A DNA stretch of 43,714 bases, taken from positions 1 to 43,714 of IMG/VR virus record IMGVR_UViG_3300011443_000012; one strand, written 5' to 3'. Made by a program: the position numbers and the translations under genes. Source of the DNA: a virus (Duplodnaviria > Caudoviricetes). The number at the start of each line of letters is the position of its first letter. The first letter of the stretch is position 1. Below are positions 6,725 to 25,399 of the stretch, in pieces. The notes beneath the pieces were generated by a model that saw only the letters and a program-made list of their open reading frames with translations, searched no databases and was not told the origin of the DNA.

Positions 6725-6746
6725 ATTTCACAACAAGGGTTGATCA

Positions 6747-8457: not shown

Positions 8458-8468
8458 GGAATCGCATC

Positions 8469-9158: not shown

Positions 9159-9168
9159 CGCGGCTGAC

Positions 9169-9612: not shown

Positions 9613-10581
9613 GTGGGCTGGACGCAGATCACGCCCGTGGACATCACGCCCGGATCGGGCGCGGGCGCCTGGACGGATGTCGATGTCACGGCGTATGTGC
9701 CGGCCGGGACGAAGGTCGTGGGGTTGCGACTGGTCAACACGTCGGCGTCAGCGGCGGCGATGGGGGTGCGGCCTAACGGCTCAAGCGACAACCGCACCAC
9801 GGGCCTACAGGCGACCGATCATCAGGGCTGCATCATCGGGCTCGATGGTAGCTTGATTTTCGAGGTGAACTTCGCGTCGATGACGGCGCAAGACGTGTAT
9901 CTCATCGGCTACGGCGACAGCGACTTTGTCGCCTTCACGAATGCGCCCGACAAATCGGCGGCCGGGACCGGCGTGGAAGACATTGACGTCTCGGGCGATA
10001 CGGGCGGAGACACCGCGGTCGGGATCGGGTTGGAGTTCATCGGCGGCACGTCGTCGAACTGGATGGTCCGCAAGAACGGGAGCACGGACAACCGCTCGCA
10101 GGACAACGTGCAACAGCATTGTTTTGTGGCGATCGGCGTGGACGGGTCGGAACTCGCCGAGCAGCAAGTCGGGGCGACGACGATTGATTGTTTCCTGAAC
10201 TGGTATGTGACGGCGCGGGCCACGTTCAACACGAACGCCACCGATGTGAGCACGGGCACGACGGGGAGTTACGTGGACATGACGGCGCTCGCGGCTGGAG
10301 CGGTGGCGGCGTGGTACGAATCGTTCTCCGCGTCGGGCACGACGGCGAAGGCGTACCGCGACAAGGACGACAGCGCGTGGGACATCTACCCGGCGTCACA
10401 ATCCGGGAAACACGCCTTTTACATCATCGGGCTCGACAGTGCGCGCGTGGGGCAACAGAAGATCAGCGGGACCGGCGGCGACACGTATGAGATCGGGTAC
10501 TACACGGCACCGGTGGCTGGTACGACGATGCGGCCGCCGCCGACGGTTGTGACGCAAGCGGTCACGCGGGCGGCCGCGTGA
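9613..10581 (+). CDS. Beta-rich structural protein with three ~100-aa internal repeats
   Basis: VRPNGSSDNR/VRKNGSTDNR; IIGLDGS/AIGVDGS/IIGLDSA; YLIGY/FLNWY/YEIGYY. Confidence 0.7.
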   Translation: MGWTQITPVDITPGSGAGAWTDVDVTAYVPAGTKVVGLRLVNTSASAAAMGVRPNGSSDNRTTGLQATDHQGCIIGLDGSLIFEVNFASMTAQDVYLIGYGDSDFVAFTNAPDKSAAGTGVEDIDVSGDTGGDTAVGIGLEFIGGTSSNWMVRKNGSTDNRSQDNVQQHCFVAIGVDGSELAEQQVGATTIDCFLNWYVTARATFNTNATDVSTGTTGSYVDMTALAAGAVAAWYESFSASGTTAKAYRDKDDSAWDIYPASQSGKHAFYIIGLDSARVGQQKISGTGGDTYEIGYYTAPVAGTTMRPPPTVVTQAVTRAAA

Positions 10582-10595
10582 GGAGAGGCAGATAG

Positions 10596-11057
10596 ATGGC
10601 TGCGCGCTACACCGCAGAAACCACCGGCGACATCGCGCTGAGCGCGGCGACCGCGAAGACGATCCTGAACGTCATCGCGGGGAGCAACGCACTCGTGCGG
10701 CTGATTGAGTTGGGCGTGTCGTTCGATGGCGTGACCGCCAGCGCCGAGCCCGTGACAGTCGAGCTGTGTTCCTCGACACAGGCCGGCGCCGGCACCTCGA
10801 CGAGTCACACCATCGTGCAGAGCGGCGGTCCCACGCGGACCGTGCAAGCGACCGCCCAACGCAATTACTCAGCCGAACCGACGACGCTGACGGTCCTGAA
10901 GCGCTGGCTCGTGCCGGCTTTTATGGGGTCGCTGGTCCTGCAGTTCCCGCTCGGGCGCGAGCCTGAGCAGGTGACGACGGCAGATGGGCTGTGTCTGCGC
11001 TGCACGGCGCCGGCCACCGTGAACGTCCAGGGCTATATGGAGTTCGAAGAAGGCTAA
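10596..11057 (+). CDS. Small beta-rich structural protein
   Basis: RBS GAGGAGAGG; Thr/Ala-rich beta-sandwich-like sequence. Confidence 0.7.
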   Translation: MAARYTAETTGDIALSAATAKTILNVIAGSNALVRLIELGVSFDGVTASAEPVTVELCSSTQAGAGTSTSHTIVQSGGPTRTVQATAQRNYSAEPTTLTVLKRWLVPAFMGSLVLQFPLGREPEQVTTADGLCLRCTAPATVNVQGYMEFEEG

Positions 11058-12583
11058 TGGCGCAACACGGACGCAGTTTCGTCTATCGGGCTCTGGCGAC
11101 GGTGGTGCGTGTTGCCAGCGTGCTGTTCGTGTCGACGCTCGACGGGACCCTGAGCACCGCCGGTGCGCTGCTCACGCTGGCGCAGAAGGTCCTCGCGGGC
11201 ACCGTCACGACAGCCGGCGCGGTGCTGACGCAGACCGCGACGCACCTCACCGGGACGCTGACGAGCAGTAGTGCGCTCGTGAAGCAGACGGCGACCGCGT
11301 TCACGGCCACCCTCCCCACGGCCGGGGCGCTCGTGCGCCAGGCGCAGAAGGTCCTCGCCGGCACGGTCAGCGCGACGGGTGCGCTGGTCGGGCAGGCCCT
11401 CAAGGTCCTGGCCAGCACGCTGACCACGGCCGGCGCCGTCCTGAAACACACCAGCACGTTCCTGACGGGGACGCTGACGACCGCCGGCGCGTTGGTGGCG
11501 GTCCGGATCGTGTTGCAGTCCGTGACGGGGACGCTGACGAGTGCCGGCGCCCTGCTCATCCAAACCCAGAAGACGCTGACGGGGACGCTGACGACCAGCG
11601 GCGCCCTTCTAAAACTCACGAGCACGTTCCTCGCCGGTACGCTGACGACGGCTGGCGCGCTGGCGGCGATCAAGATTGCCCTCCAATCCGTCGCGGGCAC
11701 GCTGACCACCGCCGCCGTCTTGACCACGCAGACGGCAAAGCTGCTGACGGGGACGCTGACCACGGCCGGGGCCCTCGTTCGTGAGACGCGGCGCGCCTTT
11801 ACTGGCGCCCTCACGACCAGTGCCACGCTGCTGAAGCAGACGAGCACGTTCCTGACCGCGACCCTCACGACCGCGGGCGTCTTGGCGGCCGTCAGGCTGG
11901 TGGTCGCGTCGGTGAGCGGCACCCTCACGACGGCGGGCGCGCTGCTCATCCAGGCGCAGACGCTCCTGACGGGCACGCTCACGAGCGCCGGCACACTCGT
12001 GCGCCAAGCGCAGAAGGCGCTGAGCGGCACGCTGACCACGGCCGGCGTCCTCGCCTCGGTCAAGATCGCGCTGTTCTCTGTCGCCGGCACGCTGACGACG
12101 GCGGGCGCGTTGCTGACGCACACCAGCACACTCCTGACAGGCGCGCTCACCACGGCAGGCGCCCTGGTCAAGGAACCGCGGCGCGCCCTCACGGCCACCC
12201 TGACCGCCGCCGGGGCCATCGTCGCGCTGGGGCAGAAAGCGCTGACCGGCACGCTGACGAGCGCGGGCACGCTCGCGCGCGCGGTGTCGTTCGCGCTTCT
12301 GGCGACGCTGACGCCCACGGGCACGCTCGCGAAGGCGACGACCCACAGCGTCGCCGCATCCCTCGTGATGGCTGGCGTGCTCACCGCCGTCATCCCGGGT
12401 GCGAGCCTGGGCGCGATCGAGCACACCGAGGCGGTGGCCGCCCTGGCGACCCGCACGGTCGATGCAGCGGTACGCCTCCGGGACACGACGATCACGCTGC
12501 CGGCGCGCACGGTGTCCGCCTCCGTGCGCCGGCGCGAGACGGTGCCGAGCCTGCCAGTCCGCACCACGGAGCAGCTCCCATGA
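11057..12583 (+). CDS. Thr/Ala/Leu-rich tandem-repeat protein (~23 repeats of 18-20 aa, consensus GTLTTAGAL-x9)
   Basis: TAATG overlap gives ATG 11057; the repeats are read directly from the translation. Confidence 0.8.
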   Translation: MAQHGRSFVYRALATVVRVASVLFVSTLDGTLSTAGALLTLAQKVLAGTVTTAGAVLTQTATHLTGTLTSSSALVKQTATAFTATLPTAGALVRQAQKVLAGTVSATGALVGQALKVLASTLTTAGAVLKHTSTFLTGTLTTAGALVAVRIVLQSVTGTLTSAGALLIQTQKTLTGTLTTSGALLKLTSTFLAGTLTTAGALAAIKIALQSVAGTLTTAAVLTTQTAKLLTGTLTTAGALVRETRRAFTGALTTSATLLKQTSTFLTATLTTAGVLAAVRLVVASVSGTLTTAGALLIQAQTLLTGTLTSAGTLVRQAQKALSGTLTTAGVLASVKIALFSVAGTLTTAGALLTHTSTLLTGALTTAGALVKEPRRALTATLTAAGAIVALGQKALTGTLTSAGTLARAVSFALLATLTPTGTLAKATTHSVAASLVMAGVLTAVIPGASLGAIEHTEAVAALATRTVDAAVRLRDTTITLPARTVSASVRRRETVPSLPVRTTEQLP

Positions 12584-12897
12584 GCGCGCCCCTCAACCTG
12601 ATCGAAGGCTGGACGGGCGATTTGGACTTCACGCTGAAGGCCGACGGCAGTGCCATCAACGGGACGGGCACCACGCCGACGCTCGTCCTGCGCGATCGGA
12701 ACGGCGGGACGGTGGATATGACGGGCAAAGTGGCCTGGATCTCGGCGGCGGCGGGCACGGTGCGCTATTCCCCGGCCGCGACCGATCTGAAAGCCCAGCT
12801 CTCGCCGTACGAAGCTCGATTCAAAGTGACCGATGCGAGTAGCAAGGACGTGTTCTTTCCCAACGGGGCCGCGGATGTCTGGACGGTGAGGACGTAA
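12580..12897 (+). CDS. BppU N-terminal-like adaptor domain protein
   Basis: LDFTLKADGSAIN.TG...GTVRY....TDL....YEARFKVT...FFPN resembles the BppU_N pattern. Confidence 0.65.
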   Translation: MSAPLNLIEGWTGDLDFTLKADGSAINGTGTTPTLVLRDRNGGTVDMTGKVAWISAAAGTVRYSPAATDLKAQLSPYEARFKVTDASSKDVFFPNGAADVWTVRT

Positions 12898-14537
12898 TGG
12901 CGCGCGCGACGACGACCTCGAAGACGCCGGCGGCCCCCAAAGCGCACCCGCTGTACGCGGACTTCCAACCCGAATGGGTGAAGCTCGCCCACGTGCGCGA
13001 GGGCACGGGCGGGTTCATGGACGGCACCTACCTCATCGCGCATCCGCGCGAATGGGAAGACCACGAATCGCCGACGCCGCGCGTCCCCACGAAGAAGCTC
13101 AAGGCCCGCCGCGCGCTCGCCTGTTACGAGAACATCGCCGCCACGATTATCGAGGCGAAGAAGTCGGCGCTCTTCCGCGAGACCGTGACGCGTCGCGTGG
13201 GGGATGCGCCCGACACGCCGATCGCGCCGGCCGTCCCACCGCCGAAAGATCCGACCAAGCCGAAGGCGGCCGGCGGCGCTGCTGAGGACGAGCCGCCGGA
13301 ACCAACACCCGCGCCGGCGCCGGTCCCGACGAAAAAGCCGAAGACACCGGTCGAGCTGTGGTGGGAGAACGTTGACGGACGCAAGACGGGCATCGACGAC
13401 TACATCAAAGCGGCCTGGGATCCCGGCGCGACCTTCGGCTACATGGTGATCTACATGGACCGTCCGAAAGGGCCAGAGCCGCAGACGGCCGCCGATCAGC
13501 AGATGCCGATCCTCCGCGCGTACACGCCGATCGACCTGGTCGACTGGGCGGTCGACGACAACGGCGAGCTGATGGAGGTCAAGCTGCTCGAGGCGGCGCC
13601 GCGCACGCTGAACGACCCGGCGTCGCAGCAGCTGAACTATCGCGTGCGCTATATCACCCGTGAGACGTGGCAGCTGCAGGACAAGGACGGCACGGCGCTC
13701 GAGCAGGGCGATCACCAGATGGGCACGCTGCCCGTCGTGCTGCTCTACACGCAGCGGCGGCCGCTGACGCCCATCATCGGCCAGTCCGTTCTCGGCCAGG
13801 CGCAGCTCTACATCGACGTGTACAACCTGCGGAGTGAGACGCGCGAACTCCTGCGGAATCAGGTGTTCAGCATTCTCAACGTCCCGCTGGGCAGCGGGCC
13901 CGACGCGATGAGCGTCGAGGACGCGAAGAAGCTGATGGGCACGAAGATCGGTACCGACAACGTGCTGTTCTCCGGCCTGGCGGCGAGCTTCATCACGGCC
14001 GCGGCTGAAAACGTGGAGGTCTACCAGAAAGAAATCGCCGACCGTCTCCGCACGATCTATCGGTGTGCGGGCGTCCCGTGGGAAGCGGACAGCCGCGATG
14101 CCGAAGCCGAAGGGTCCCATAAGCTCAAGCGCGAGGAGCTGAATCAGCGCTTGTCGTCCTACGCCGACGAAATCGAAAAGGCGGAATACAAGCTGGTCGA
14201 GCTCTTCTATCGCGCGATGCACGGTGCCGACGCGTACGAGAAGGCGCTCGAGAAGGACCAGGTCGTCATCCGCTACCCCGATACGTTCGACATCACGCCG
14301 TTTGCGGAAGTCCTCGAGCAGGCGCAGGCCGCCATCTCGCTCGGCATGCCGGCGCTCTTCCTGAAGGAGCTGCGCAAGCGGCTCGTGTCGAAGTTCATGC
14401 CGGATCTGCCGCCGGCGACCGAAGCCGCGATCACCGCGGCCATCGACGGCGCGCCCGATGACCTCACGCCGGCGGAACGGATGAAGGAGCGCATCAAGGC
14501 CACGAGCCAGGCGCTGAAGGAGGAAACCGCCGCATGA
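12897..14537 (+). CDS. Portal protein
   Basis: 546 aa; YLIAHPRE, YENI, WWENVDG...IDDY, AEAEGSHKLKREELN resemble SPP1-type portals; precedes the head genes. Confidence 0.85.
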   Translation: MARATTTSKTPAAPKAHPLYADFQPEWVKLAHVREGTGGFMDGTYLIAHPREWEDHESPTPRVPTKKLKARRALACYENIAATIIEAKKSALFRETVTRRVGDAPDTPIAPAVPPPKDPTKPKAAGGAAEDEPPEPTPAPAPVPTKKPKTPVELWWENVDGRKTGIDDYIKAAWDPGATFGYMVIYMDRPKGPEPQTAADQQMPILRAYTPIDLVDWAVDDNGELMEVKLLEAAPRTLNDPASQQLNYRVRYITRETWQLQDKDGTALEQGDHQMGTLPVVLLYTQRRPLTPIIGQSVLGQAQLYIDVYNLRSETRELLRNQVFSILNVPLGSGPDAMSVEDAKKLMGTKIGTDNVLFSGLAASFITAAAENVEVYQKEIADRLRTIYRCAGVPWEADSRDAEAEGSHKLKREELNQRLSSYADEIEKAEYKLVELFYRAMHGADAYEKALEKDQVVIRYPDTFDITPFAEVLEQAQAAISLGMPALFLKELRKRLVSKFMPDLPPATEAAITAAIDGAPDDLTPAERMKERIKATSQALKEETAA

Positions 14538-15388
14538 GTCGGCCGACCCTCCGCCTGGTGAAAGGCGCCCGCAAGGTCGCGACGACGGTCGACCAGGCCG
14601 CGCGGACGTTCGAGCGCGAGCTCGCGCGCGTGTACCGCGAGCTCAGTCGACGCCTGGCCACGACGATCGAACAGGCCGCCGCGGGGTCGCGGACGGCCAT
14701 TGTGCAGGCCAGCCAGGCGGCACAGCTCCGGCGGGACCTAGCACGCGCCATGAGCGAGGCCGGCTATCGCCAGCTCGCCGATGTGGCCACGGGCGATCCG
14801 CTCGATCGCGTGGTCCGCGACGTCCTGGCGACGCGTCGGCTCGCCGGCGCCAGTGCGCAACTCTCCACAGGCGCCCGTGTCCGTCTCGAGGCGCTGCGGG
14901 GCCTCCAGTTGGAAGACTTGCTCGACGAAGGCGCCGAGGCCGCGCGTGCGTTGTGGCAGGCGACGACGCGCGGCATCTTCGGTAGCCGGCCGGTCGATCG
15001 GATTCTTGACGACCTCGAGGACGTGCTCGACGGCTCCGCGGCTGAGATTCGCACGCTCTACGACACGTCGGTCTCGATCTACGGGCGCCAGGTGGAAGCG
15101 CTGCAGGCCGGGGACGACGCCGACACAACCTTCGCCTACCTCGGGCCCGCGGACGAGGTCACGCGACCGTTCTGCCGGAAGCACGTCGGCCGCGTCTACA
15201 CGCGCGCGCAAATCGATCGGCTCGACAACGGGCAGCTCGACAACGTGTTCCTGACGGGCGGCGGGTACAACTGCCGACACACCTGGATTGAGATCGCGAA
15301 GTCGAGCGAGCTGCAGGACCTGGTCGGCACGAAGGACCGCATCCCCGAAGTGGCCGAGCAGCTCGACGAGCTCGAGGAGGCCGCCTGA
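14534..15388 (+). CDS. Minor head protein (Mu gpF / SPP1 gp7-like)
   Basis: YLGPADEVTRPFC...GGYNCRH C-terminal motif; follows the portal. Confidence 0.8.
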   Translation: MSRPTLRLVKGARKVATTVDQAARTFERELARVYRELSRRLATTIEQAAAGSRTAIVQASQAAQLRRDLARAMSEAGYRQLADVATGDPLDRVVRDVLATRRLAGASAQLSTGARVRLEALRGLQLEDLLDEGAEAARALWQATTRGIFGSRPVDRILDDLEDVLDGSAAEIRTLYDTSVSIYGRQVEALQAGDDADTTFAYLGPADEVTRPFCRKHVGRVYTRAQIDRLDNGQLDNVFLTGGGYNCRHTWIEIAKSSELQDLVGTKDRIPEVAEQLDELEEAA

Positions 15389-16008
15389 TGGAGCGGCTCC
15401 CATGGACGTACGAGCAGGGCGACCCGGCGATCGCGCTCTTCACGAAGGCGTACGAGCGCTGGCCGATGCCGTTCCTGCCTGGGCAACGCATCATCGAACT
15501 CGGCTGCGCCGAGACCGACTGGCTCGAGCGGATGCACGCGCTCGACCCGACACTCGACCTACACGGTGTGGATGCCCGGCGCGATCGCGACCCGCATGGC
15601 TGGAGTCAGTACCACGCGAGCGCGATCGACGCGCAGCTCTTCCGTGAGGGCACATTCGACTGGGTGGTGATGCTGGGCGCCCTCGAACACTTCGGCCTCG
15701 GCTACTACGGCGACCCGGTCGACGACGCCGGCGACGTGAAAACAATGCAGAACGTCGTGCGCTGGCTGAAGCCCGGCGGGCACGTGTACTTCGATGTGCC
15801 GTTCAACCCGACGTATCGCGTGACCGAGAACCGGCACTTCCGCATCTACAACACCGACGCCCTGGCGCTGCGGCTGATTGTGCCAGGGCTGATGGTGCGC
15901 GAGCACGCATTCTCGCTGCCCGAACCGGATGCCGGCACATGGATCCCCGAACCGACCGAGGACCGCGAGCCGTATCACTTCGTCGCGGTCTGGGCAGAGC
16001 GGTTATGA
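15388..16008 (+). CDS. Class I SAM-dependent methyltransferase (DUF268-like)
   Basis: IIELGCAE motif I, FDWVV, LEHFGLGYYGDP (DUF268-like signature), LKPGG. Confidence 0.85.
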   Translation: MERLPWTYEQGDPAIALFTKAYERWPMPFLPGQRIIELGCAETDWLERMHALDPTLDLHGVDARRDRDPHGWSQYHASAIDAQLFREGTFDWVVMLGALEHFGLGYYGDPVDDAGDVKTMQNVVRWLKPGGHVYFDVPFNPTYRVTENRHFRIYNTDALALRLIVPGLMVREHAFSLPEPDAGTWIPEPTEDREPYHFVAVWAERL

Positions 16009-16301
16009 GCGTCAAGGTCAACAAGAACTTTGGGCGGCTGGAGGACATTCCGCTGTCAAACCGCGAGCTCATCCGCGAGCTGCTGTTGCTCGCGCGCGAG
16101 CGCGTGATTCGCCGCACGCTGGCCGGGCAGTCGTCCGAGGGCGTGGCGTTTGTTCCCTACTCGCCCGGGTACCTGAAGGCGAAGCGGAAGGCGCTGGGGA
16201 CGTCGGGGCGGCCGAACCTGCAGGCCTCGGGCCGGATGCTGAACGAGATCACCATCGTCGAGCTCACCGACACGCGCGGGACGCTCGGGTTCAGCAGCTG
16301 A
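16005..16301 (+). CDS. Virion morphogenesis (Mu gpG / tail_S-like) protein, N-terminal half
   Basis: RRT..G...G..F.PYS..Y...K......PNL..SGRML..I pattern. Confidence 0.65.
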   Translation: MSVKVNKNFGRLEDIPLSNRELIRELLLLARERVIRRTLAGQSSEGVAFVPYSPGYLKAKRKALGTSGRPNLQASGRMLNEITIVELTDTRGTLGFSS

Positions 16302-16501
16302 TGGCGAAGAAGCGGCGGACCACGTTCAATCAACGCAGCCGGGCGAAGAGCTCGGCGGAAAAGGCGGCGTATCACGATGTCAGCGGGGCCGGCCGGAGTA
16401 AGGTGCGGCGGCCGTTTTTCAGTTTGACCGAGTCGGATGAAGAGGTACTGAGCGAGCGGTATCGCCAGTTCCTCGATCGCACGACGCAGTCCTCGCGCTG
16501 A
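16301..16501 (+). CDS. Virion morphogenesis protein, C-terminal half
   Basis: KAAYHD..G.....RPFFSLT..D resembles the usual C-terminal motif; TGATG coupling. Confidence 0.6.
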   Translation: MAKKRRTTFNQRSRAKSSAEKAAYHDVSGAGRSKVRRPFFSLTESDEEVLSERYRQFLDRTTQSSR

Positions 16502-16523
16502 GGACGTTGGAGGGATAGGAGCC

Positions 16524-17297
16524 ATGGAGAAGAAAACCTTCGAACTGCCCACGGACGAGAAGGGCGCCGTGTTCATTCCGGACGAGCTGTTGCCGAACTT
16601 TCAACCGGCGATCGATCGGCTGACGGCGAAGCGCATCAACGATGTGCGCACCGAAGCCCAGAAGGAAATCGATGCGCTGAAGAAGAGCGCGGCGAACCCG
16701 GCCGACCTCGAGCGCCTGCGACAGCTCGAGGAGAAGGAAAAGGCGCGCGCGATCGAGGACGAGGAGAAGGCGAAAAACTACAAGGAAGCCCTGGCGCTGA
16801 AAGACAAGGACATCACCGAGAAGCTCGGCGCCAAGGACCAAGAGATCAAGCGCCACCGTGACGCGCTGCAGTCCGGCCTGCGGGCCGAGATTCGCGCGGC
16901 CGCGGCCAAAAGTGGTGCCCGCGATGAATCCATCGCGGAGCTCGAACAGTTGCTCATCGGGCGATTGGACCTCGACAAGGACTTCGCAGTGATCGTGAAA
17001 GGCGCCGACGGGCAGCCCGCTGTCGACGCGGAGAAGAAGCCCTTAACGGTCGAGGGAATGGTCAGCACGTACCTGGACGCGAATCCGCATCATCGCAAAG
17101 CGGCCGGCGGGACCGGCGGCGGCGCACGGGGCGGCGCGTCTCTCCACACCAATCTGCCGCCGGCAGCCAGGGCGGCTTACGACAAGGTCGTCGCCGCGCA
17201 AAAGCGCCTCGACGATGGCGATCGCTCCGATCAGGCCATCACCGACCTCTTCGAAGCCAACCGGGAGCTGACGCGGGCGAAAGCGGGAGTCAAATAG
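16524..17297 (+). CDS. Capsid scaffolding protein
   Basis: Charged coiled coil, YLDANPH plus Gly-rich linker; directly before the major capsid gene. Confidence 0.8.
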   Translation: MEKKTFELPTDEKGAVFIPDELLPNFQPAIDRLTAKRINDVRTEAQKEIDALKKSAANPADLERLRQLEEKEKARAIEDEEKAKNYKEALALKDKDITEKLGAKDQEIKRHRDALQSGLRAEIRAAAAKSGARDESIAELEQLLIGRLDLDKDFAVIVKGADGQPAVDAEKKPLTVEGMVSTYLDANPHHRKAAGGTGGGARGGASLHTNLPPAARAAYDKVVAAQKRLDDGDRSDQAITDLFEANRELTRAKAGVK

Positions 17298-17299
17298 CC

Positions 17300-18448
17300 A
17301 TGCCATTTTCAGGACTGAGCACGAATCGTCTGTTCATCCCCAACCTGGTCGGTGAGGACATCTCGCCGATCATCACCTCGCTCGCGCCCGTCGAAGCGCC
17401 GGTCCTCGACTGGCTCGGCGACGCGGCGGTGTTCGCGCAGCAGCCCAAGCACGAGTACGTGATGGACTTTCTGCGGCCGCACTACATCGTCGCGTCGACG
17501 GCGATCAACTCGGCGACCGCGGCGACGGCGTTCCAGACCAACGGCCTCGGCGAAGCGCTGGTCGTCGGGACTCTGCTCGAGAACGAATCGGCGGCGCCGG
17601 AAATCGTGCAGGTGACCTCCATCGTCGGCCCGAACTCGATCGTCGTGAGCCGCAACTACGACGGGTCGGGCATCGGCTCGCTCGCCGCGGGCGGGCAGCT
17701 CTACGTGCGCGGGCCGGCCGGCATCGAAGGTCAGGAGCACTCGGGGCAGCACACCGCGCGCCCGGGCGTCCGGACCGCGAACACGGTCGGGCTGTTCAAC
17801 ATCCCGATCGCGGTCTCGGGCACGCAGGATGCGATTCAGCGCCTGACGCTCGGGAACGAGTCGTTCGAAGCCGCCCGCGCGAAAATCTTCCGGCAGGTCC
17901 CCTCGGACCTCGAGAAGGAAGTGCTCCGCGGCGTGCTGAACGCGACGAACTCGCTGGGCACGTCCACAGCGAGTCGGTCGATGAAAGGCATCCGCGGCCA
18001 CATCACGACCGTCAACTCGACGATCGCCGCGGCGTCATTCAACGCGAACCCGCATCTCTACATCGGCAACGTCTGGCAGCAGGTCTACAACAACGGCGCG
18101 TCCGAGAACGAGACCTGGGGCATCGTGGCGGGCGCGACGTTCTTCCGCGACATCTCGAACATGAACGACTCGAAGGTGCAGGACACCAACGCCCGCGAGG
18201 TGTTCAAGCGGGTGATCCGGAACTACGAGGGCCCGTTCGGCCAGTGCACGGTGTTCCTCAGCCGCGTGCTGCCCGCCACGGAGCTGCTGCTCCTGCCGCG
18301 GGAACGCGTCCGGGTGCTGCCGTTGAACGGCCGGAGCTTCGGGTATCAGGAGATGGGCCTCTCGGGTGACAACCGGAAGGGCCACGTCGTCGGGGAGTAC
18401 ACCGTCGAAGTGCACCACGAAAGTGCGATGGCGCGCCTGCGCGTCTGA
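17300..18448 (+). CDS. Major capsid protein (SU10/DUF5309-like HK97 fold) with an inserted beta domain
   Basis: EDISPII....P.EAP...HEY..D; VSGTQDA; DLEKEVLRG; YEGPFG; GDNRKGHVVGEYTVEV. Confidence 0.88.
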   Translation: MPFSGLSTNRLFIPNLVGEDISPIITSLAPVEAPVLDWLGDAAVFAQQPKHEYVMDFLRPHYIVASTAINSATAATAFQTNGLGEALVVGTLLENESAAPEIVQVTSIVGPNSIVVSRNYDGSGIGSLAAGGQLYVRGPAGIEGQEHSGQHTARPGVRTANTVGLFNIPIAVSGTQDAIQRLTLGNESFEAARAKIFRQVPSDLEKEVLRGVLNATNSLGTSTASRSMKGIRGHITTVNSTIAAASFNANPHLYIGNVWQQVYNNGASENETWGIVAGATFFRDISNMNDSKVQDTNAREVFKRVIRNYEGPFGQCTVFLSRVLPATELLLLPRERVRVLPLNGRSFGYQEMGLSGDNRKGHVVGEYTVEVHHESAMARLRV

Positions 18449-18461
18449 GCGTGCGTCTGGA

Positions 18462-18487
18462 GGCGGGGGCGGGTGACCGCCCTCGCC
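18462..18487 (+). terminator. Stem-loop after the major capsid gene
   Basis: GGCGGGGGCGG-GTGA-CCGCCCTCGCC: 11-bp stem (one G-U) with a GNRA loop; U-tract is weak. Confidence 0.55.
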
Positions 18488-18504
18488 GTTCGGTGGGAGG
18501 ATCG

Positions 18505-18684
18505 ATGGATCCGGTCATTCAAGAAATACAGCGGGCTCGCGCGGGTGACATCCGTCCGGATGTCTTTCGGCGCTGGGCGCGCTATCTGCGCGAGCAGATT
18601 CAGCCGCAGCTCGACGAGCTCGCCGAGCTGAAGCAACACCCGCAGGCGGCGAAGGCGCCGTCGAAGAAAAAGGAGACCGTGTGA
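18505..18684 (+). CDS. Small hypothetical protein
   Basis: GGGAGG RBS, ATG 18505; GTGA overlap with the glycosyltransferase gene. Confidence 0.65.
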   Translation: MDPVIQEIQRARAGDIRPDVFRRWARYLREQIQPQLDELAELKQHPQAAKAPSKKKETV

Positions 18685-21600
18685 GCCCGTTGACGATTGG
18701 CTTCTTTATCGACTCTGTCGTCTTTACGCCCGGCGTGGTGTCGGGCGCGGAGTCGCTCGGCGGGTCGGAGTCCGCCTGTCTCGGTCTCGCGCGCGCGCTG
18801 AAAGCCCGCGGGCATCGCGTCTACATCTTCGCGACCAAGCTCGACCCGGCGGCCGCGAAGACCGACCATGCCGGCGTCGAGTGGCATCCGCTCGAGCACG
18901 TCGCCGTGCTGAACCAGTACATCGAGTGGGACGTGTTCGTCTCGCTGCGGATGCCGGGCTTCTTCGCCGGCCACAGCGTGAACGCGCGCCTGAAGCTCCT
19001 CTGGTCGCAGGACCTGATGACCGGCGAAGACATGAAGGCGCAGACGATGGCGGCCGCCTGGCAGGTCGACCACTACGTGTACGTGTCCGAGTTCCATCGC
19101 CGGCAGTGGGAGGCGAACGCGCCCGAGCTGGCTCCGCGCGGGTACGCCTCGCGCAACGGGTTCGACCCGGCGCTGGTGCCGGCCGATGTCACGAAGAAGC
19201 CGAATCAGATCATCCATATCAGCCGGCCCGAGCGTGGGCTGAAACCCCTCCTCGCGATCTGGCCGAAGATTCGCGCTGCCCACCCGCACGCCGAACTCGT
19301 GCTCTGCCGCTACAGCTCGATGTACGACCCGGGGGGCTGGGGCGAGATCTGCAAGCACTACGACCGTCAGGTCGACGCCGTCAACCAACAGACCGGCGGC
19401 CTCACTTTCCTCGGCGAGCTCGGCAAGCCCGCCCTCTACCAGGCGCTCGCCGAGTCGGCCGTGATGCTCTACCCCGGCGTGGCGACGTTCGCGGAAACGT
19501 CCTGCATTGCCGCGATCGAGGCGCAGGCCTGCGGGACGCCGTTCGTGGGGTCCTACAAGGGCGCGCTGCCCGAGACGGCGGCGCCGGCCTATCGACACGG
19601 GCATCTGCTCCGCGGCGATGCGGAGCGTGACGACACATACCACGCGGCCGCGGTGGCGGCCGTGGTCGCGCTCCTGGACGGCTGCGCCCGCCAGTCGAAG
19701 GACTACCGCCGGCTGCAGCTCGAGGGGCGCACGCACGTGGCGCGATATGCCTACGACGTCATCGCGGCGGAGTGGGAGACGCAGATCGAGACATGGTTCA
19801 GCGAACGGTACGAGGCGAACCGGATCCGCGTGATGCGACAGCTGCTGCACGAAGACGACCACGTCGCCGCGAAGGCCGTGGCTGAGGACATCGTCGAGTC
19901 GACCGGCCATTGCTGCGTCGATGGCGTGCTCGAGGCGCCCACGAATTCTCCAGAGCTGTTCGAGGCTGTTGGCGCGGTGAAATTCTGTGATTACGTCATC
20001 GCCGGCAAGGACCACACTGCCGAGAACTATGCGGCGCACGCGGCCGACCCGCTGATGGAGGCGGAGTACTCCGAACGCTTCAAGGCCGTGGTGCCGATGT
20101 TCAAGGACTGCACGCGCGTCCTCGACGTTGCCTGCGGCAACGGATCGTTCGCGCTGAAGCTCGCGAAGACCCATCCGACCATTCGCGTCGTCGGCCTCGA
20201 CTACGCCGAGGGCAATATCGCCGTCGCGCGCGCGGCCGCCGAGCAGCTCGGCCTGGCGGACCGCTGCACGTTCATCGCGCTACCGGTCTACGACTTCGAC
20301 ACGCAGGGCCTGACGGACGCCTGGCAGGCGTTCGCCCGAGAGAACCAAGCGGCCTACGACGGCCTCTTCGTTGGCGAGTTCATCGAACACTGCGCCGGCT
20401 ACCAGGCCGTCATCGACGGCCTCGAGGTCGCCCTGCAGCCAGACGCGCTCGCCATCTACACGTGCCCGAACGGCCCGATGGTGGAGATCATCGGACGGCA
20501 CGTCCCGATTCACCGTGGCCACGTCCACCGCTTCGCGTCCGACGACGTCGAGGCGGTGTGGGGCCCGAAGTCCGATTGGAACGCCGCGTACGTGTCAGCT
20601 GGCTACACCGTCCGCGGCAAGCCGCTCGGCAACTGGATTATCAGCTACCGGCATGAACCCGGGCGGCCCGCCGGTCAGCGGCCGCTCGAGGCCCGCATCG
20701 CCCGCACGCGGCCGCAGCAGCGGCTGTCGGTCATGCTCATCGTGAAGGATGCCGAGCAGGACCTGGCACGCTGCCTCGACAGCGTCTGGAGTATCGCGCA
20801 CGAGATCATCGTCGGCGACACCGGGTCCACCGACCACACGAAGGCGATCGCGCGGGACTACGGCGCAACGGTCCTCGACCTGGCGCCCGTCGAAGAACAG
20901 GCCGAAGGCTTCGCCGGCGCGCGCAACGCTGTCCTGGCCGCGGCGACCGGCGACTGGGTGCTGTGGATTGACGCCGACGAGATGGTGGTCGGCGCCGAGC
21001 ACGTGAGCAAGTACACCGAAACGGGCGTGTTCCAAGGCTACGTGCTGCACCAGACGCACCTCTACATGGACATGGCACCGAGCTATGACATCCCGGTGCG
21101 CCTCTTCCGCCGCGAGCCGCAGATTCGCTTCTTCGGTTGCGTGCACGAGCAGCCCGGCAACGGGGACGCGAACACGGACCTCTTCCCCGTCCTCGAGGTG
21201 ATGCACGAGCTCGCGATCGCGCACACCGGGTACCTGACCGAACTCACGCGGCGGCAGAAGATGCTGCACCGCAACCTACCGCTGCTCGTGAAGGACCGCC
21301 AGGTCTTCAAGGAGCGGACGCTCGGCATCGTGCTGGTCATCCGCGACTACGTGAACCTCGCCGACCACGACCGCGAGCAGCACGGGGGTCGCGTCGACGG
21401 GCGCGCGGTGGGCTGGTACCAGCAGGCGATCGCGCTCTTCGAGCAGCACTTCGCCGACCCGGCGCACAAGTTCCATCAGATCGCCCGGCCCTACTACGAG
21501 ACCGCCATTCGCACGCTCGGCCGCGCGTACGAGATTCAAATTGCGCTCGGCGGGCGCTACGGCGGCATGGAAAACCGGCGCGCGACTGTCGAGTCGATCT

Positions 21601-21764
21601 GGGTGCAGAACTCCGCGGAGATCCGGCGGATGCTGCTGCACAAGCTCGACAGCATCGAAACGAAGATGCACCCGCTGCCGCTGCACGTCGATCCGTTCGA
21701 GGACCTGGTCCCTGTGACCCAGCCAGTCACGACGGCGGAACCGATGGCGGAGGTGTCGGCATGA
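18681..21764 (+). CDS. Fusion of GT4 (GT-B) glycosyltransferase, class I methyltransferase and GT2 (GT-A) glycosyltransferase with helical C-terminus
   Basis: SLGGSE and ETSCIAAIEAQACG (EX7E, ~aa 272); VLDVACGNG (~aa 480); LSVMLIVKD..DTGSTD..ARN..WIDADE..VHEQ..HTGY (~aa 680-860). Confidence 0.92.
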   Translation: MSPLTIGFFIDSVVFTPGVVSGAESLGGSESACLGLARALKARGHRVYIFATKLDPAAAKTDHAGVEWHPLEHVAVLNQYIEWDVFVSLRMPGFFAGHSVNARLKLLWSQDLMTGEDMKAQTMAAAWQVDHYVYVSEFHRRQWEANAPELAPRGYASRNGFDPALVPADVTKKPNQIIHISRPERGLKPLLAIWPKIRAAHPHAELVLCRYSSMYDPGGWGEICKHYDRQVDAVNQQTGGLTFLGELGKPALYQALAESAVMLYPGVATFAETSCIAAIEAQACGTPFVGSYKGALPETAAPAYRHGHLLRGDAERDDTYHAAAVAAVVALLDGCARQSKDYRRLQLEGRTHVARYAYDVIAAEWETQIETWFSERYEANRIRVMRQLLHEDDHVAAKAVAEDIVESTGHCCVDGVLEAPTNSPELFEAVGAVKFCDYVIAGKDHTAENYAAHAADPLMEAEYSERFKAVVPMFKDCTRVLDVACGNGSFALKLAKTHPTIRVVGLDYAEGNIAVARAAAEQLGLADRCTFIALPVYDFDTQGLTDAWQAFARENQAAYDGLFVGEFIEHCAGYQAVIDGLEVALQPDALAIYTCPNGPMVEIIGRHVPIHRGHVHRFASDDVEAVWGPKSDWNAAYVSAGYTVRGKPLGNWIISYRHEPGRPAGQRPLEARIARTRPQQRLSVMLIVKDAEQDLARCLDSVWSIAHEIIVGDTGSTDHTKAIARDYGATVLDLAPVEEQAEGFAGARNAVLAAATGDWVLWIDADEMVVGAEHVSKYTETGVFQGYVLHQTHLYMDMAPSYDIPVRLFRREPQIRFFGCVHEQPGNGDANTDLFPVLEVMHELAIAHTGYLTELTRRQKMLHRNLPLLVKDRQVFKERTLGIVLVIRDYVNLADHDREQHGGRVDGRAVGWYQQAIALFEQHFADPAHKFHQIARPYYETAIRTLGRAYEIQIALGGRYGGMENRRATVESIWVQNSAEIRRMLLHKLDSIETKMHPLPLHVDPFEDLVPVTQPVTTAEPMAEVSA

Positions 21765-22615
21765 GCTGGCATCCGAGCGACCTCGTCACCAACGCCGACC
21801 TGGCCGCCTATGAGAACCAGGTGATGCAGCGGTTCGGGCAGTCGGATTGGTCGGCGAAGGTGACCAAGGCGCTCGAGGACTGGCTCTTCCCCACGCTGAA
21901 GGCGCGGGGATTCGATCCGTTCCGGTTGCGGACGCGGCTCGAGCCGGCGCTCGTGCTGACGTACACAAGCAGCGCCTTCGCCGATCGGACGGCCGACGCG
22001 CGTTCCACCGATGCCGATGATCTGAACCTCGCCACCATTCTGGCGGCGTCGACGGATTACCTCTACGTCGGGCTGACGCAGCCGTTCCGTGGCGTGCATG
22101 TCCGGATGCTCGACCAGGTCTCCTCGGCCGCGGCCGTGCTCACCGCGCAGTACTGGGCGGATGCCTGGACAGCGCTCACGGTGGCCGACGGCACCGCGAA
22201 AACCACCGGCAAGCCGTTCAGCGGGGGCGGGTCACTTACGTGGGGGGTGCCGACGGACTGGAGCGTGCGCAAGGTCAACAACAGCGCCGACCTGTACTGG
22301 GTCCGGCTATCGCTCTCGGCCGCACCCACCGGCGCGAAGGCGACGCAGCTCGGGGGCGTCCGCGCGTCGGTCTTCCGGGCGCCGGTCGCGCTGCGCACGT
22401 TGCAGCTCATCTTCCGCGAGGCGCCGACTGGGCAGGACGGGCCCTGGCTCGAGAAGGCCGAGTTCTACAAGGACGAAGCGGACGCGGCGCTCACGCGCGC
22501 GCTCGAGATTTGCGGCGGCGAGTTCGACACCGATGCGAGCGATCAGATCTCCGCCGATGAAGCCGACCAGACGCCGGAAGAAGCGGGCGGCGGCTGGCAG
22601 ATGGAGCGCGGCTGA
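21761..22615 (+). CDS. Putative head-tail adaptor with an inserted beta-sandwich domain
   Basis: Helical N- and C-terminal parts flank YLYVG...YW...W...DGT...LYWVRL; lies after the head genes. Confidence 0.55.
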   Translation: MSWHPSDLVTNADLAAYENQVMQRFGQSDWSAKVTKALEDWLFPTLKARGFDPFRLRTRLEPALVLTYTSSAFADRTADARSTDADDLNLATILAASTDYLYVGLTQPFRGVHVRMLDQVSSAAAVLTAQYWADAWTALTVADGTAKTTGKPFSGGGSLTWGVPTDWSVRKVNNSADLYWVRLSLSAAPTGAKATQLGGVRASVFRAPVALRTLQLIFREAPTGQDGPWLEKAEFYKDEADAALTRALEICGGEFDTDASDQISADEADQTPEEAGGGWQMERG

Positions 22616-22803
22616 TGGAGTTGAAGGGCGACATTCACGTGATGCCTGTCGACGATCTCTGGGAGCACGTCGACTCCGACGACTGCTGGTGTGAGCCACG
22701 CCTCGAGGGTGAGAGTCGTCCGTTTGTCGTCGTACACCACAGCGCCGATCGACGCGAGTTCTTCGAGGGGCGCATCATGCCGCTCGATGGAGTGAGCACG
22801 TAA
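22615..22803 (+). CDS. Small His/Cys-rich phage hypothetical protein
   Basis: HVMPVDD..EH....CWCEP...VVHHSAD.RE. Confidence 0.65.
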   Translation: MELKGDIHVMPVDDLWEHVDSDDCWCEPRLEGESRPFVVVHHSADRREFFEGRIMPLDGVST

Positions 22804-23097
22804 ATGCGACGCGCCTGGCGAGACTTTTGGGCGGCGTTCTGGCTGGCCTTCGAGGCCGCGCGGAACCGCGCGCCGCGGTGCACGCCCAATCCTGCACCGG
22901 CCGCCGACGTGCCGCGCGAGATCGTGTGGCCGGACTCACGCATCGTCTGCACCTTGCTGATCGACTGCGAGCTCTGCGGCGAGTCGTTCGTCCAGACGAC
23001 GGAAGGCTGGCTCCTCGACCACGCCGGCCAGCATCTCGTCTGCCCGATTTGCACGCTGCCGACGCCGCAGGTCATCTGCTATGAGGCGCGCGCCTGA
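22804..23097 (+). CDS. Small Zn-binding hypothetical protein
   Basis: CELC and CPIC; abuts both neighbours. Confidence 0.5.
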   Translation: MRRAWRDFWAAFWLAFEAARNRAPRCTPNPAPAADVPREIVWPDSRIVCTLLIDCELCGESFVQTTEGWLLDHAGQHLVCPICTLPTPQVICYEARA

Positions 23098-23528
23098 TGG
23101 CCGCGAATCGCGCCGAGCTGGTCTGGGCCCGCGTGAACTCGGTGTGCGCGAGTGCGCCGTTCGACTTCATCCAGGCGCCGTCGCCGTTTTCGTTCAGTCA
23201 GACGCCGACCGGCCTCATCGATCGGGCGTTTCGGATCGAGATGGAAGAAGCCGGGGTCATCGGCGGCCTCAGCTACACGGAAGATCGGACGGACCTCGTG
23301 CACATCTGGGTCGCGCGCGCGCTCGCGAGTGCGCCGCAGGACACCTATCGCAGCCTCCTGACGGACGCGACGTCGCTCACCGCGGCGGTCGTTCGGGACG
23401 GGGCGGAGCTCGGCGGCGACTACGACGTGCCTGATGACGGGCGCGGGAAGACCCTCGAACACGATCGAACCAACGAATTTGCGCTGCTGCGCCTCACGTT
23501 GCCCGTGAACTACGAGGCCGCGCTGTAA
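23097..23528 (+). CDS. Putative tail terminator/completion protein
   Basis: 143 aa, directly before the tail tube; C-terminal LTLPVNYE strand. Confidence 0.6.
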   Translation: MAANRAELVWARVNSVCASAPFDFIQAPSPFSFSQTPTGLIDRAFRIEMEEAGVIGGLSYTEDRTDLVHIWVARALASAPQDTYRSLLTDATSLTAAVVRDGAELGGDYDVPDDGRGKTLEHDRTNEFALLRLTLPVNYEAAL

Positions 23529-23540
23529 AGGAGTTTCATC

Positions 23541-24608
23541 ATGGCGGGAGTCACCGGCCGACAGGCCGACATCGCGTTTGCGAAATTTGCGACGAACTCG
23601 TGGGGCGTCGCGGCGAGCGTCACGAAGGGGATCTACTTTTCCAGTGATGGCGGGCTGAAGTTCTCGCCGTCGATTGTCGTTGACGACGCGTTCGGCCAGG
23701 TCTTCACCGAGCAAGCCGAGGTCGGCAACGTGCCGCCGGTCTCCCCGAACTTCGGCGGCGTCGATCGATTCGACGATTACAACTACGTCTGGGAAGCCCT
23801 CGCGATGGGCTCGCCGGCGACGGTGACGATCTCGACGTCGGCCGGCGGCCAGACGACGAGCTGGCAGCACATCATCGACCTCGCACCGAACACGGACGGC
23901 CTCGGGTTGACCGCGGCGATCGACAAGGTGGCCTACGTTGACGAACTCACCAGCGCCAAGGTCACCGGCTGGCGCGAGGAGCTCGGCGACGGCGGCATGA
24001 TGCGGCAGACCTACAAAACGATCGGGACGTACCCGACGAACATCTCGAGCACGAACACCCGCTCGACCGTGGCCGGGGCCACCTATCCCGCACTCGGCAA
24101 CCGCATCTTTGCCAAGGGCGGCACGTTCCGTATGAACCTGAATACCGCCGGCGCGCTGGGGGCCGGGGACGTCGTGAAGATCGAAAGCGTCGCCTTCGAG
24201 TGGGATCGGCCGCAGGATGCGCCGAACGTCTTCGGGCAGAACTTCGTCGACGAGCCGGCCGACAACGGGTTCCCGACGTTCCGGGTCGAAGTGTCGTACC
24301 CGCGCCTGACGGCGAACCTGGCGAATTCGCTGCATGCGGGTCTCCGGGCGGGCACCGCGTTCAAAGCCGATCTGACGTTCCTCGGGAACTTCATCAACTC
24401 GACGGACCAGTACAAGAAGCTCTACCAGTGGCCGTACCTGCAGCTCGCGCAGGATGGCTTCGAAGCACCGCTCGTCGGCGCGAACCAGGTCAAGCCGAAG
24501 GCGATCTTCGAGGCGCGCATCGCCCAGACGTCGCCGACCGGCATGGCGTTCATCAATCCGTTCCGGTTGACCCGCACGATGGTCAACTCGGTGCACGCCT
24601 TCTCGTAA
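23541..24608 (+). CDS. Major tail tube protein
   Basis: RBS AAAGGAG; 355-aa beta-rich protein followed by chaperone and tape-measure genes. Confidence 0.8.
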   Translation: MAGVTGRQADIAFAKFATNSWGVAASVTKGIYFSSDGGLKFSPSIVVDDAFGQVFTEQAEVGNVPPVSPNFGGVDRFDDYNYVWEALAMGSPATVTISTSAGGQTTSWQHIIDLAPNTDGLGLTAAIDKVAYVDELTSAKVTGWREELGDGGMMRQTYKTIGTYPTNISSTNTRSTVAGATYPALGNRIFAKGGTFRMNLNTAGALGAGDVVKIESVAFEWDRPQDAPNVFGQNFVDEPADNGFPTFRVEVSYPRLTANLANSLHAGLRAGTAFKADLTFLGNFINSTDQYKKLYQWPYLQLAQDGFEAPLVGANQVKPKAIFEARIAQTSPTGMAFINPFRLTRTMVNSVHAFS

Positions 24609-24623
24609 CCGTTCGCAGGTGGA

Positions 24624-24644
24624 GGCCCCGCCTGGTGCGGGGCC
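24624..24644 (+). terminator. Hairpin after the tail tube gene
   Basis: GGCCCCGC-ctggt-GCGGGGCC. Confidence 0.45.
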
Positions 24645-24663
24645 GTTCGACAAGGAGCCAGAC

Positions 24664-25065
24664 ATGGCGTTGGAACTGCTCGACGAAAACGATCGCATCG
24701 AAGTGAAGGACAGCGAGCTCGAAGACGTGAACGACCCGGACCAGGACGCGGCGTACACGCTGCGGCCGATTTCAACCACGAAGCAGCGGGAGATTACGAA
24801 GCGCCACACCGACCACGTGCTCAACCGACATACCGGCCGGAAAGAGCCGAAGGTAGACGGCGATAAGGTTGCGGATGATCTCCTCGACTTCGCCTTGGTG
24901 AGCTGGAGCGGCATCGTGCACAAGGGCAAGTCGTTGCCCTGCGAACGCGAGTACAAGCTCCAGCTCGATGCGGTCAGGAAGAGCGGGCTCCTGATCATCG
25001 CCGGTTTGAATCGGACGGAGCGGGAGGCCCAGGCCAAGGCCGAGTCCTTTCGTAGCCCTGCGTAG
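24664..25065 (+). CDS. Tail assembly chaperone (gpG-like)
   Basis: AAGGAG RBS before ATG 24664; LVSWSGI...LPC..E.K; lies between tube and TMP. Confidence 0.8.
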   Translation: MALELLDENDRIEVKDSELEDVNDPDQDAAYTLRPISTTKQREITKRHTDHVLNRHTGRKEPKVDGDKVADDLLDFALVSWSGIVHKGKSLPCEREYKLQLDAVRKSGLLIIAGLNRTEREAQAKAESFRSPA

Positions 25066-25390
25066 CTTTTGCGACTACTGGGTCGAGCAGCGGCCGTCCG
25101 CCGCGTGTTGTTTGTTCTGTGACGATGAGACGCTCGAGACCGATCCCGAGCAGTTCGAGTGCAGCACCTGTGAGGTGCGTCAGCAATTAGACGGGCTCAG
25201 TTCGGAGAACGCCGAGGCGTGGCAGCTCTATCAACGGCTGCTGTCGCGGTTCCTCGTCGACCTCCTGCTGGTCCCGGACATGTTTCGGCACCTGACAGCG
25301 GACTGGACACACGAACAGATCGTGGACCGGCTCGAGCGGCTGATGGTGATGTACGACATCCTCAGCCCCCCGCCGCCGAGTCCTTCCTAA
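25049..25390 (+). CDS. Tail assembly chaperone extension (gpT-like), probably reached by a +1 frameshift
   Basis: The +1 frame is open from TCC_TTT_CGT (25045-25053) to TAA 25390; CxxC...ENAEAWQLY motif; no good independent start. Confidence 0.65.
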   Translation, partial: FVALRSFCDYWVEQRPSAACCLFCDDETLETDPEQFECSTCEVRQQLDGLSSENAEAWQLYQRLLSRFLVDLLLVPDMFRHLTADWTHEQIVDRLERLMVMYDILSPPPPSPS

Positions 25391-25399
25391 ATCATTGAT

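Follow-up and report, generated by a model that had tools for sequence, protein, structure and literature searches.

The virus record IMGVR_UViG_3300011443_000012, a 43,714-nucleotide (nt) stretch of tailed-phage DNA analysed over its whole length (hereafter the window), carries in its head operon a gene for a fusion of two glycosyltransferases (GTs) and a methyltransferase. The fusion gene (18681..21764, plus strand, GTG start) encodes 1027 amino acids (aa). As an earlier note on this DNA had described, it lies one small open reading frame (ORF) after the major capsid gene and is translationally coupled to its neighbours, its start overlapping the small upstream ORF (GTGA) and its end the gene that begins at 21761 (ATGA). 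The capsid protein (17300..18448, plus strand) matched SU10_MCP (E 5.9e-40) and was modelled with a predicted local distance difference test score (pLDDT) of 80; its best fold match was the phage VP1 capsid 9in6 (E 6.8e-23), and its HK97 fold is of the SU10 type and bears an all-beta insertion (about aa 60-138). The small ORF (18505..18684, plus strand, 59 aa) had no Pfam match; the ATG at 18505 is its most likely start, with relatives aligning from there, and homologs lie between the capsid and fusion genes in many loci of the window's own lineage (lineage 1). Directly 3' of the fusion, in the head-tail adaptor slot, lies a virion-type 284-aa protein (21761..22615, plus strand) with no Pfam or PHROG name, whose Atlas clusters are viral hypothetical proteins. 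The GC content at third codon positions is 0.90 in the fusion gene, inside the 0.86-0.92 range of six operon neighbours, and the fusion is conserved to much the same degree as structural proteins (50%, compared with 60% for the capsid, 54% for the tail tube and 44% for the portal).

The union of a GT4, an S-adenosylmethionine (SAM) methyltransferase and a GT2 domain in one protein, proposed in the earlier note, was borne out by Pfam, by a confident structural model and by conserved motifs. Pfam matches were Glyco_trans_1_4 at aa 179-311 (E 1.6e-8), Methyltransf_31 at aa 477-549 (E 9.5e-12) and Glycos_transf_2 at aa 683-767 (E 1.1e-16), and the AlphaFold model, built with 119 aligned relatives as input, reached a pLDDT of 94.4 and a predicted template modelling score (pTM) of 0.93. 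Motif conservation was scored in two alignments, of 119 close and 84 distant rows. The GT-B domain (GT4; 18681..19808, plus strand, aa 1-376) carries GGSE, RPERG (R182-P-E-R-G) and EX7E motifs, and the two glutamates of the last, E272 and E280, are kept in 99-100% of both alignments. Residues 4-376 superposed on the GT-B enzyme MshA (Z 32.0, root-mean-square deviation 2.8, 337 aligned), and as modelled this half is a complete two-Rossmann GT-B fold with a conserved donor-binding arginine motif. Its best fold matches, at 14-22% identity, were MshA, sucrose-phosphate synthase, BshA and PimA. Such folds would fit an enzyme that makes a diffusible methylated glycoside or glycolipid, acting as a signal, an anti-defence compound or a lysis aid. 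We regard this as the least probable of the explanations considered, given that the GT4 matches are generic, that the GT2 domain is of a protein-acceptor type and that such a product gives no reason for a fixed position among head and tail genes.

The middle domain (20073..20660, plus strand, about aa 465-660) has the motif I (D482-x3-G-x-G) and second acidic residue (D507) of a class I SAM methyltransferase, to which it belongs by sequence, and an E-F-x-E-H motif. D482, G486, G488 and D507 are present in all 119 close rows and in 93, 55, 79 and 85% of the distant rows; E569 is kept in 100% and 86%, respectively. Its best PDB sequence matches were small-molecule and sugar O- and N-methyltransferases; the best single-sequence match was a D-glucose O-methyltransferase (E 3.8e-7), with N- and C-methyltransferases scoring alike. 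The GT-A domain (GT2; 20721..21305, plus strand, aa 681-875) has the motifs D764-x-D766-E767, H822-E823, H848-x-G-Y and R864-N865, and D764, D766, E767, H822, E823, R864 and N865 are invariant in both alignments. It had been likened to GmaR and SunS, and its best solved relatives by sequence, profile and fold were indeed GmaR, ThuS and SunS (sequence E 8e-20 for GmaR; profile E 1e-40, 1e-24 and 6e-22, respectively). The fusion scored 53.1 bits against a cut-off of 350 for TIGR04195, the SunS peptide S-glycosyltransferase family, and so is not a member. A mostly helical C-terminal domain follows (21318..21668, plus strand, aa 880-996, from the secondary structure of the model, in which helices span 854-996); by analogy with the tetratricopeptide repeat (TPR)-like regions of GmaR and SunS, it is likely to bind the acceptor. 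No transmembrane-like segment was found in the fusion (maximum 19-residue hydropathy 1.51), and it is likely a cytoplasmic assembly-line enzyme. The best PHROG match of the fusion is annotated as a beta-1,4-glycosyltransferase. Lipopolysaccharide (LPS) beta-1,4-glucosyltransferases share the DADE and VHE motifs; because of this, these motifs alone are no proof of a protein acceptor.

A single-sequence scan of viral contigs returned no relatives of the fusion; relatives emerged only with alignments. At E 1e-30 these gave 254 of 7,999 scored candidates, the 119 best non-self matches sharing 47-61% identity, nearly all over the full length. A further search at the same threshold gave 885 representatives at the 50%-identity level, and most of the 150 listed cover all three domains. 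For the gene-neighbourhood survey that the earlier note had proposed, 111 lineage-1 loci were reduced to 65 clusters at 90% identity, with the window's own copy excluded from the counts. A capsid homolog lies upstream of the fusion in 53 of 53 testable clusters (11 were too short), and a homolog of the gene at 21761 lies downstream in 48 of 49. The reverse search, by capsid, gave 74 loci, including 29 contigs not already found by fusion; by hand count, 20 of these carry the fusion and 9 end at most 921 nt from the capsid gene. When 44 records from a wider capsid search (best 80 of 237) were searched over their whole length, 8 had the fusion, among them 2 of the 10 near-complete ones. In a quick IQ-TREE run on 93 capsids, with 33 fragment rows left unlabelled, a branch with support 99 separates the 51 rows that carry the fusion from the nine that lack it, all nine from complete or near-complete genomes. 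In two 89-95 kb members the fusion has moved 10-22 kb from the capsid gene and is still in the morphogenesis block, immediately ahead of the genes for tail connector, tube and tape measure.

The fusion also occurs with a second head module. The best 80 of 416 distant fusions formed 52 clusters, and in 38 of them a capsid gene precedes the fusion on its own strand, no more than 1 kb away in 28; only other structural genes are visible in 11. Most of these clusters have a lambda-like head module (protease, decoration protein, phrog_1005 capsid, adaptor, neck and tube), here called lineage 2. Profile comparison of the lineage-2 and lineage-1 capsids found no similarity (probability 0.25%). The reverse test in lineage 2 took 79 loci, the best of at least 539, some of them re-cuts of known loci: 68 carry the fusion, 11 are too short and none lacks it. 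Among 63 capsid clusters, with GC contents of 30-69%, the fusion is present in 57 and six are too short, so that capsid linkage holds in 57 of 57 testable clusters. The fusion is missing from more distant Mu-like phages whose capsid and tube are related (15 records, one complete), and in several of their records the capsid, adaptor and tube genes are contiguous. Descent of a single head module from a common ancestor cannot account for a gene that is fixed next to two unrelated capsids. By gene content and position, the fusion behaves as a core morphogenesis gene. No loss from either head module was seen, which makes it probable that the particle depends on the modification to assemble, to stay stable or to infect; it would then be no optional extra. 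Inteins in the fusion gene would suggest essentiality.

Several variants of the gene were seen. Longer fusions of 1264-1278 aa occur in P0110, L286 (9998-13830) and L328 (10001-13830), and that of P0110 carries intein and HNH Pfam domains. In L303 (2122-7125) two GT4-GT2-like paralogs without a methyltransferase precede the full fusion, in L384 the gene is split into two ORFs, and in L310 and L342 it stands beside a capsid gene on the opposite strand. In a 186-kb record (L297, 1-22940; L286), whose fusion bears the NCBI label Pacearchaeota, several ADP-ribosyltransferase-like ORFs flank the fusion.

We considered whether the enzyme might instead modify the host surface (LPS, exopolysaccharide, flagellin, pilin or S-layer), blocking superinfection or altering the lysogen, and merely travel in the late operon. 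These phages are temperate, with an integrase and an integrated copy in an Acidobacteriota contig, and the DADE and VHE motifs are, as said, common to LPS enzymes. GmaR itself acts on flagellin, as a reference title in PMC3150276 indicates, and a GT2-methyltransferase fusion of Clostridioides difficile is described as modifying the flagellin glycan (PMC5207246). Against these points, start and stop codons overlap on both sides of the fusion, and 0 consensus promoters were found in 5800-25400 against 1.5 expected, which is weak evidence for this host; promoter and terminator scans were at chance level. The fusion was never seen lost among relatives whose GC content spans 30-69%, unlike typical conversion genes. 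It has no membrane segment, no GtrA/B-type partner turned up among the ORFs scanned, and host-surface action leaves unexplained the conserved serine motifs in capsid and tube described below. We consider it unlikely.

Candidate acceptor sites on the virion were sought by ranking dipeptides over 18 lineage-1 protein families. Asn-Ser was the top dipeptide in the capsid (45 rows; 4.13 per protein against 1.62 expected) and in the tail tube (34 rows; 4.32 against 1.25), and ranked 72 or lower, or was absent, in the 16 other families. Measured against what each row itself would lead one to expect, it was in excess in every one of 45 capsids and in 33 of 34 tubes; the corresponding counts were 5 of 27 for portals, 3 of 17 for terminases and 22 of 51 for fusions. 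Columns in which Asn-Ser is kept in at least half of the rows number four in the capsid, five in the tube and none in eight other families. The window's capsid sites are S71, S113, S218 and S240 (columns in 27, 35, 42 and 43 of 45 rows), and all four lie in loops or at a strand edge of the capsid model. Those of its tube (23541..24608, plus strand; homologs match Phage_tube_2, the window protein itself having no Pfam match) are S20, S263, S287 and S350 (27, 28, 33 and 21 of 34 rows); the fifth tube column, near aa 175, is kept in 19 of 34. Serines 71, 127, 240 and 246 are invariant in 48 capsids. The residue preceding S66 and S71 varies, and this, together with the invariant serines, favours O-linkage. 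Fusion-less capsid homologs average 0.8 Asn-Ser (9 rows), and 11 fusion-less tubes average 0.82 against 0.95 expected, with none at the five columns. Of the conserved columns more generally, serine makes up 12 of 188 in the capsids of lineage 1 and 2 of 171 in an outgroup of like divergence. In lineage 2 they number 12 of 89 in the capsid, 5 of 29 in the decoration protein and 7 of 58 in the tube, compared with 2 of 75 in the protease and 4 of 99 in the portal. From these sequence patterns, Asn-Ser is a candidate, lineage-specific acceptor motif of capsid and tube.

The virion could also be modified chiefly elsewhere, on a fibre or decoration protein, or by a methyl group placed on protein, Asn-Ser being then a structural turn motif. 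Asn-Ser is indeed common in turns. A Thr-rich repeat protein of the window, a likely fibre (11057..12583, plus strand), has 28% Ser+Thr and zero Asn-Ser, and the lineage-2 decoration protein has four conserved Ser-Gly columns. The repeat protein, with no family match, has no homolog in the relative loci shown, whereas the fusion is fixed; and homologous tubes and capsids, whose folds are presumably alike, have no Asn-Ser at these columns. This alternative seems to us quite improbable. Two wider motifs were rejected: Ser-Gly as a general motif, which fits only the lineage-2 decoration protein, and Asn-Ser as a family-wide one, which lineage 2 does not bear out. The capsid beta insertion was likewise dropped as a glycosylation marker, as the insertion is present in Lietuvens and CB452P1, neither of which has a glycosyltransferase annotated downstream of its capsid gene.

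Other genes of the block may point to variable decoration. A second, DUF268-like class I SAM methyltransferase (15388..16008, plus strand, 206 aa; DUF268 E 2.1e-11, Methyltransf_23 E 4.9e-9) sits, as had been noted, between the minor-head gene directly upstream (TGATG overlap) and a neck-like gene (ATGA overlap); a sequence search for solved relatives of it gave none of use (best E 0.25). The idea that it is a built-in part of the system did not survive: it is present in 9 of 33 testable relative clusters, in L026/L047 upstream of the terminase instead, and is likely an optional accessory, a second tailoring enzyme. A Methyltransf_24 gene lies between capsid and fusion in four loci, and other inserts in or beside the structural block of relatives are GT2, TylF-like, FkbM-like and PF01973 genes (PF01973 being the Maf/DUF115 domain), extra GT4s, a sulfotransferase and radical SAM/SPASM genes. 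The sister phages L466 (259-6919) and L468 (5385-9015) share the tube and the homologs of the genes at 21761 and 23097, and have a different capsid. In them GT-A-like genes replace the fusion (Pfam E 3e-5 to 0.03 in L468; the two of L466 had no Pfam match), the slot also holds a CmcI/rhamnosyl O-methyltransferase-like gene (E 4e-50 and 2e-57), and all five Asn-Ser columns of the tube are missing. In the unrelated podovirus MW202524 (L169, 1656-11978) a GT2-TPR-GT4 gene lies two genes after an SU10 capsid gene. On the evidence of the accessory inserts, the L466 and L468 replacements and the MW202524 gene, the slot is repeatedly occupied by glycan-building genes.

Among these relatives, MW202524 also has a 165-aa gene between the capsid and GT2-TPR-GT4 genes, further GTs and methyltransferases, and three Asn-Ser in its capsid. 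Ahead of the structural genes, relatives (L176, 279-2624; L189, 6848-9576) have either a 782-aa fusion of PF01973 (MptE/Maf-like) and a methyltransferase or a cluster of TylF-like, PF01973 and methyltransferase genes. Radical SAM/SPASM genes of about 240 aa, often paired, occur in the lineage-2 head operon (L293, 5434-6156, and 18 related clusters).

Phage GT-A and GT-B enzymes also hypermodify DNA, and the fusion might glycosylate and methylate phage bases. Hypermodification clusters can lie close to structural genes, according to 10.1101/2023.12.21.572611, and a C5-cytosine methyltransferase is present in 6 of 26 relatives. It is absent in the other 20, including 9 of 11 near-complete ones, and a thymidylate-synthase-like gene was found in 0 of 27 records, a search whose control matched 10 of 14. 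A search for Tet_JBP (5mYOX/TET dioxygenase) matched 0 of 27 records, its control likewise matching nowhere. In the same paper, action on DNA is considered less likely for GTs that lack such neighbours (10.1101/2023.12.21.572611). The methyltransferase domain best matches small-molecule enzymes, apart from one weak PHROG match labelled DNA methyltransferase (E 4e-4). In agreement with the earlier note, Pfam searches with three partly overlapping sets of window ORFs (46, 9 and 21, covering part of the 323 listed) found no sugar-nucleotide, GtrA/B or base-modification families. The scanned ORFs do not make up a GtrABC serotype-conversion system, nor has the fusion a membrane-like segment. We regard action on DNA as very unlikely.

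We think it probable, on the combined sequence and model evidence, that the fusion decorates virion proteins of the phage itself, most likely capsid and tail tube, with a short methylated O-glycan. The earlier proposal of protein glycosylation gains from the domains, their relatives, the capsid linkage and the fact that no hydroxymethyl-base pathway was found. Expressed late, together with the structural genes, the fusion would use its inverting GT2 and helical tail to attach a first, host-supplied sugar to serines on the surface, which in this lineage are probably those of [IVAT]-N-S sites. The retaining GT4 would add a second sugar and the internal methyltransferase would cap the glycan. Optional neighbours (DUF268-like, FkbM, TylF and CmcI-like methyltransferases, extra GTs, sulfotransferase, radical SAM) could then vary the coat.

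A number of observations weigh against this interpretation. The Asn-Ser motif was chosen post hoc, and in the window's capsid and tube alone the tests are weak (p 0.12 and 0.03). Lineage 2 shows no Asn-Ser excess (rank 127 in capsid, 284 in tube), and five distant fusion-bearing capsids have only 1-3 Asn-Ser, with Asn-Thr at some columns. The capsid-tree split is, by its topology, a single evolutionary event, and the capsid and tube contrasts rest on single events and not on independent replication. In 2 of the 52 distant clusters the capsid gene adjoins the fusion on the opposite strand, and in one (L352) our script recognised no structural gene and the neighbours are non-structural. The GT4 domain has its nearest folds in enzymes for small molecules and lipids. 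No cultured phage with the full gene is among 50,697 annotated phage records, in all of which coverage of the fusion stays below 80%.

The known systems nearest in layout, of which the earlier note names neither the A064R-A061L pair nor the cluster O cassette, differ from the fusion in several respects. Chlorovirus PBCV-1 A064R, as described in PMC9614988, has two rhamnosyltransferases and a methyltransferase and acts, with A061L as second methyltransferase, on the capsid glycan. As with A064R and A061L, a single polypeptide encoded by the window unites two GT domains with a SAM methyltransferase, a further methyltransferase has a gene of its own, and the fusion falls into the A064R-type architecture class (two GTs and a methyltransferase in one viral protein). 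A064R has 638 aa in the order GT-A (GT34-like), novel-family GT and C-terminal methyltransferase, as given there (PMC9614988), whereas the 1027-aa fusion runs GT-B, methyltransferase, GT-A. A064R belongs to a eukaryotic giant virus and extends the pre-built core of an N-glycan, whereas the GT2 of the fusion would start the glycan. No match of A064R to the fusion appeared in PDB searches. Mycobacteriophage glycosyltransferases are reported, by sources citing Freeman 2023, to modify capsid and tail tube, and in their accounts phage-encoded virion glycosylation is established for only a few mycobacteriophages (PMC11600133, PMC12619734, PMC11256854). Those glycans are reported at the C-termini of capsid and tube, whereas the candidate sites here are internal, and the window's host is a probable Gram-negative (Acidobacteriota). 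The 34 phage records matched by tblastn with the fusion include no mycobacteriophages. The cluster O cassette gp35-38 lies between portal and protease, was not found in purified virions and has been proposed to modify the capsid, according to PMC4351075. Like the window, it places GT and O-methyltransferase genes inside the head operon of a tailed phage; unlike the window, with its single fusion fixed as a core gene, it has separate single-domain genes.

GmaR (PDB 22ao) and SunS/ThuS (7msp, 7msk) share with the fusion GT2 the DxDE, HE, HxGY and RN motifs followed by helices. They are single-GT proteins with TPR-like regions, a layout of GT plus TPR that PMC3150276 also gives for GmaR, and they lack the GT4 and methyltransferase of the fusion. 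The C. difficile type B flagellin GT2 (CDR20291_0242) is described as a GT-methyltransferase fusion proposed to add and methylate rhamnoses (PMC5207246). By that description it resembles the window's gene in being a GT-methyltransferase fusion encoded beside its structural-protein substrate (a proposed one in the window), and differs in belonging to a bacterial flagellin locus where a separate GT1 primes, with no GT4 domain described. In its action the fusion would resemble A064R with A061L and the cluster O cassette, but by gene content and homology it belongs to none of these systems. A literature search over titles and abstract openings, with few subscription journals covered, returned no description of a GT4-methyltransferase-GT2 phage protein. 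New here are the fixed inheritance beside two unrelated capsids, the replacement by other glycan genes and the named candidate serines, all read from sequence.

In its widest form, the proposal is of a fixed, probably essential three-domain enzyme of at least two large, uncultured groups of tailed phages that is self-contained and lipid-carrier-free, builds a methylated O-glycan coat on capsid and tail tube, in this lineage at a predictable Asn-Ser sequon that arose in two unrelated virion folds, and would make glycosylated virions common in the environment; this we put forward tentatively, rating its chances somewhat short of even. If true, a glycan coat would be a core trait of hundreds of environmental phages whose capsids are unrelated and whose hosts differ greatly in GC content, and virion glycosylation would be no mycobacteriophage oddity. 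In soil and water this would have a bearing on how virions persist, adsorb and recognise their hosts, and an enzyme that primes, extends and caps from one gene and needs little more than a short motif in its acceptor would serve glyco-engineering as a compact tool.

By its gene content, direct terminal repeats of 123 nt and completeness rating of 100%, the window (1-43,714) is a complete temperate siphovirus-type genome. Besides the genes above it has those for terminase (6847-8457), portal (12897-14537), tape measure (25400-28543), a tyrosine integrase (35659-36723) and an endolysin. An Acidobacteriota host is likely, because a relative with the same fusion and a 39%-identical integrase is integrated in a 225-kb Acidobacteriota contig of a metagenome-assembled genome (MAG), flanked by host genes for Xaa-Pro dipeptidase, LigD, Ku, TreS and GlgX, among others. 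The capsid of this relative is among the five rows nearest the window capsid in the tree. Among sequencing runs, one DNA run was listed as containing the sequence, possibly the run from which it came, and no RNA run was. The MAG labels Nitrospira (9.8 kb), Vicinamibacterales (9.1 kb) and Xanthobacteraceae (38 kb) come from short contigs and were not used as proof of host. A tRNA-like stretch on the reverse strand beside the integrase end (35610-35655), which resembles the 3' part of a CAT-anticodon tRNA, is likely the phage attachment site attP. ARAGORN found no whole tRNA gene in the window, and the stretch had zero blastn matches in 11 loci and so gave no pointer to the host.

Further small genes recur among the structural genes of relatives. 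In a 95-kb relative about ten basic ORFs with similar 'KKQLA-FA' starts lie there (L275, 13666-19141; L276, 513-14611), and a small gene with helix-turn-helix and E1_FCCH-like features (L004, 1927-2361, and 22 related ORFs) occurs at several places in the lineage-1 structural block. In the window, the interval between terminase and portal (8469-12897) holds Ser/Thr-rich unnamed genes of likely virion proteins, including a 508-aa protein with TLTTAGAL repeats and a BppU-like adaptor. Near its end, a 297-aa protein (42067-42960) with a long tract of AAWDAA/AARAAA repeats matches unnamed PHROGs.

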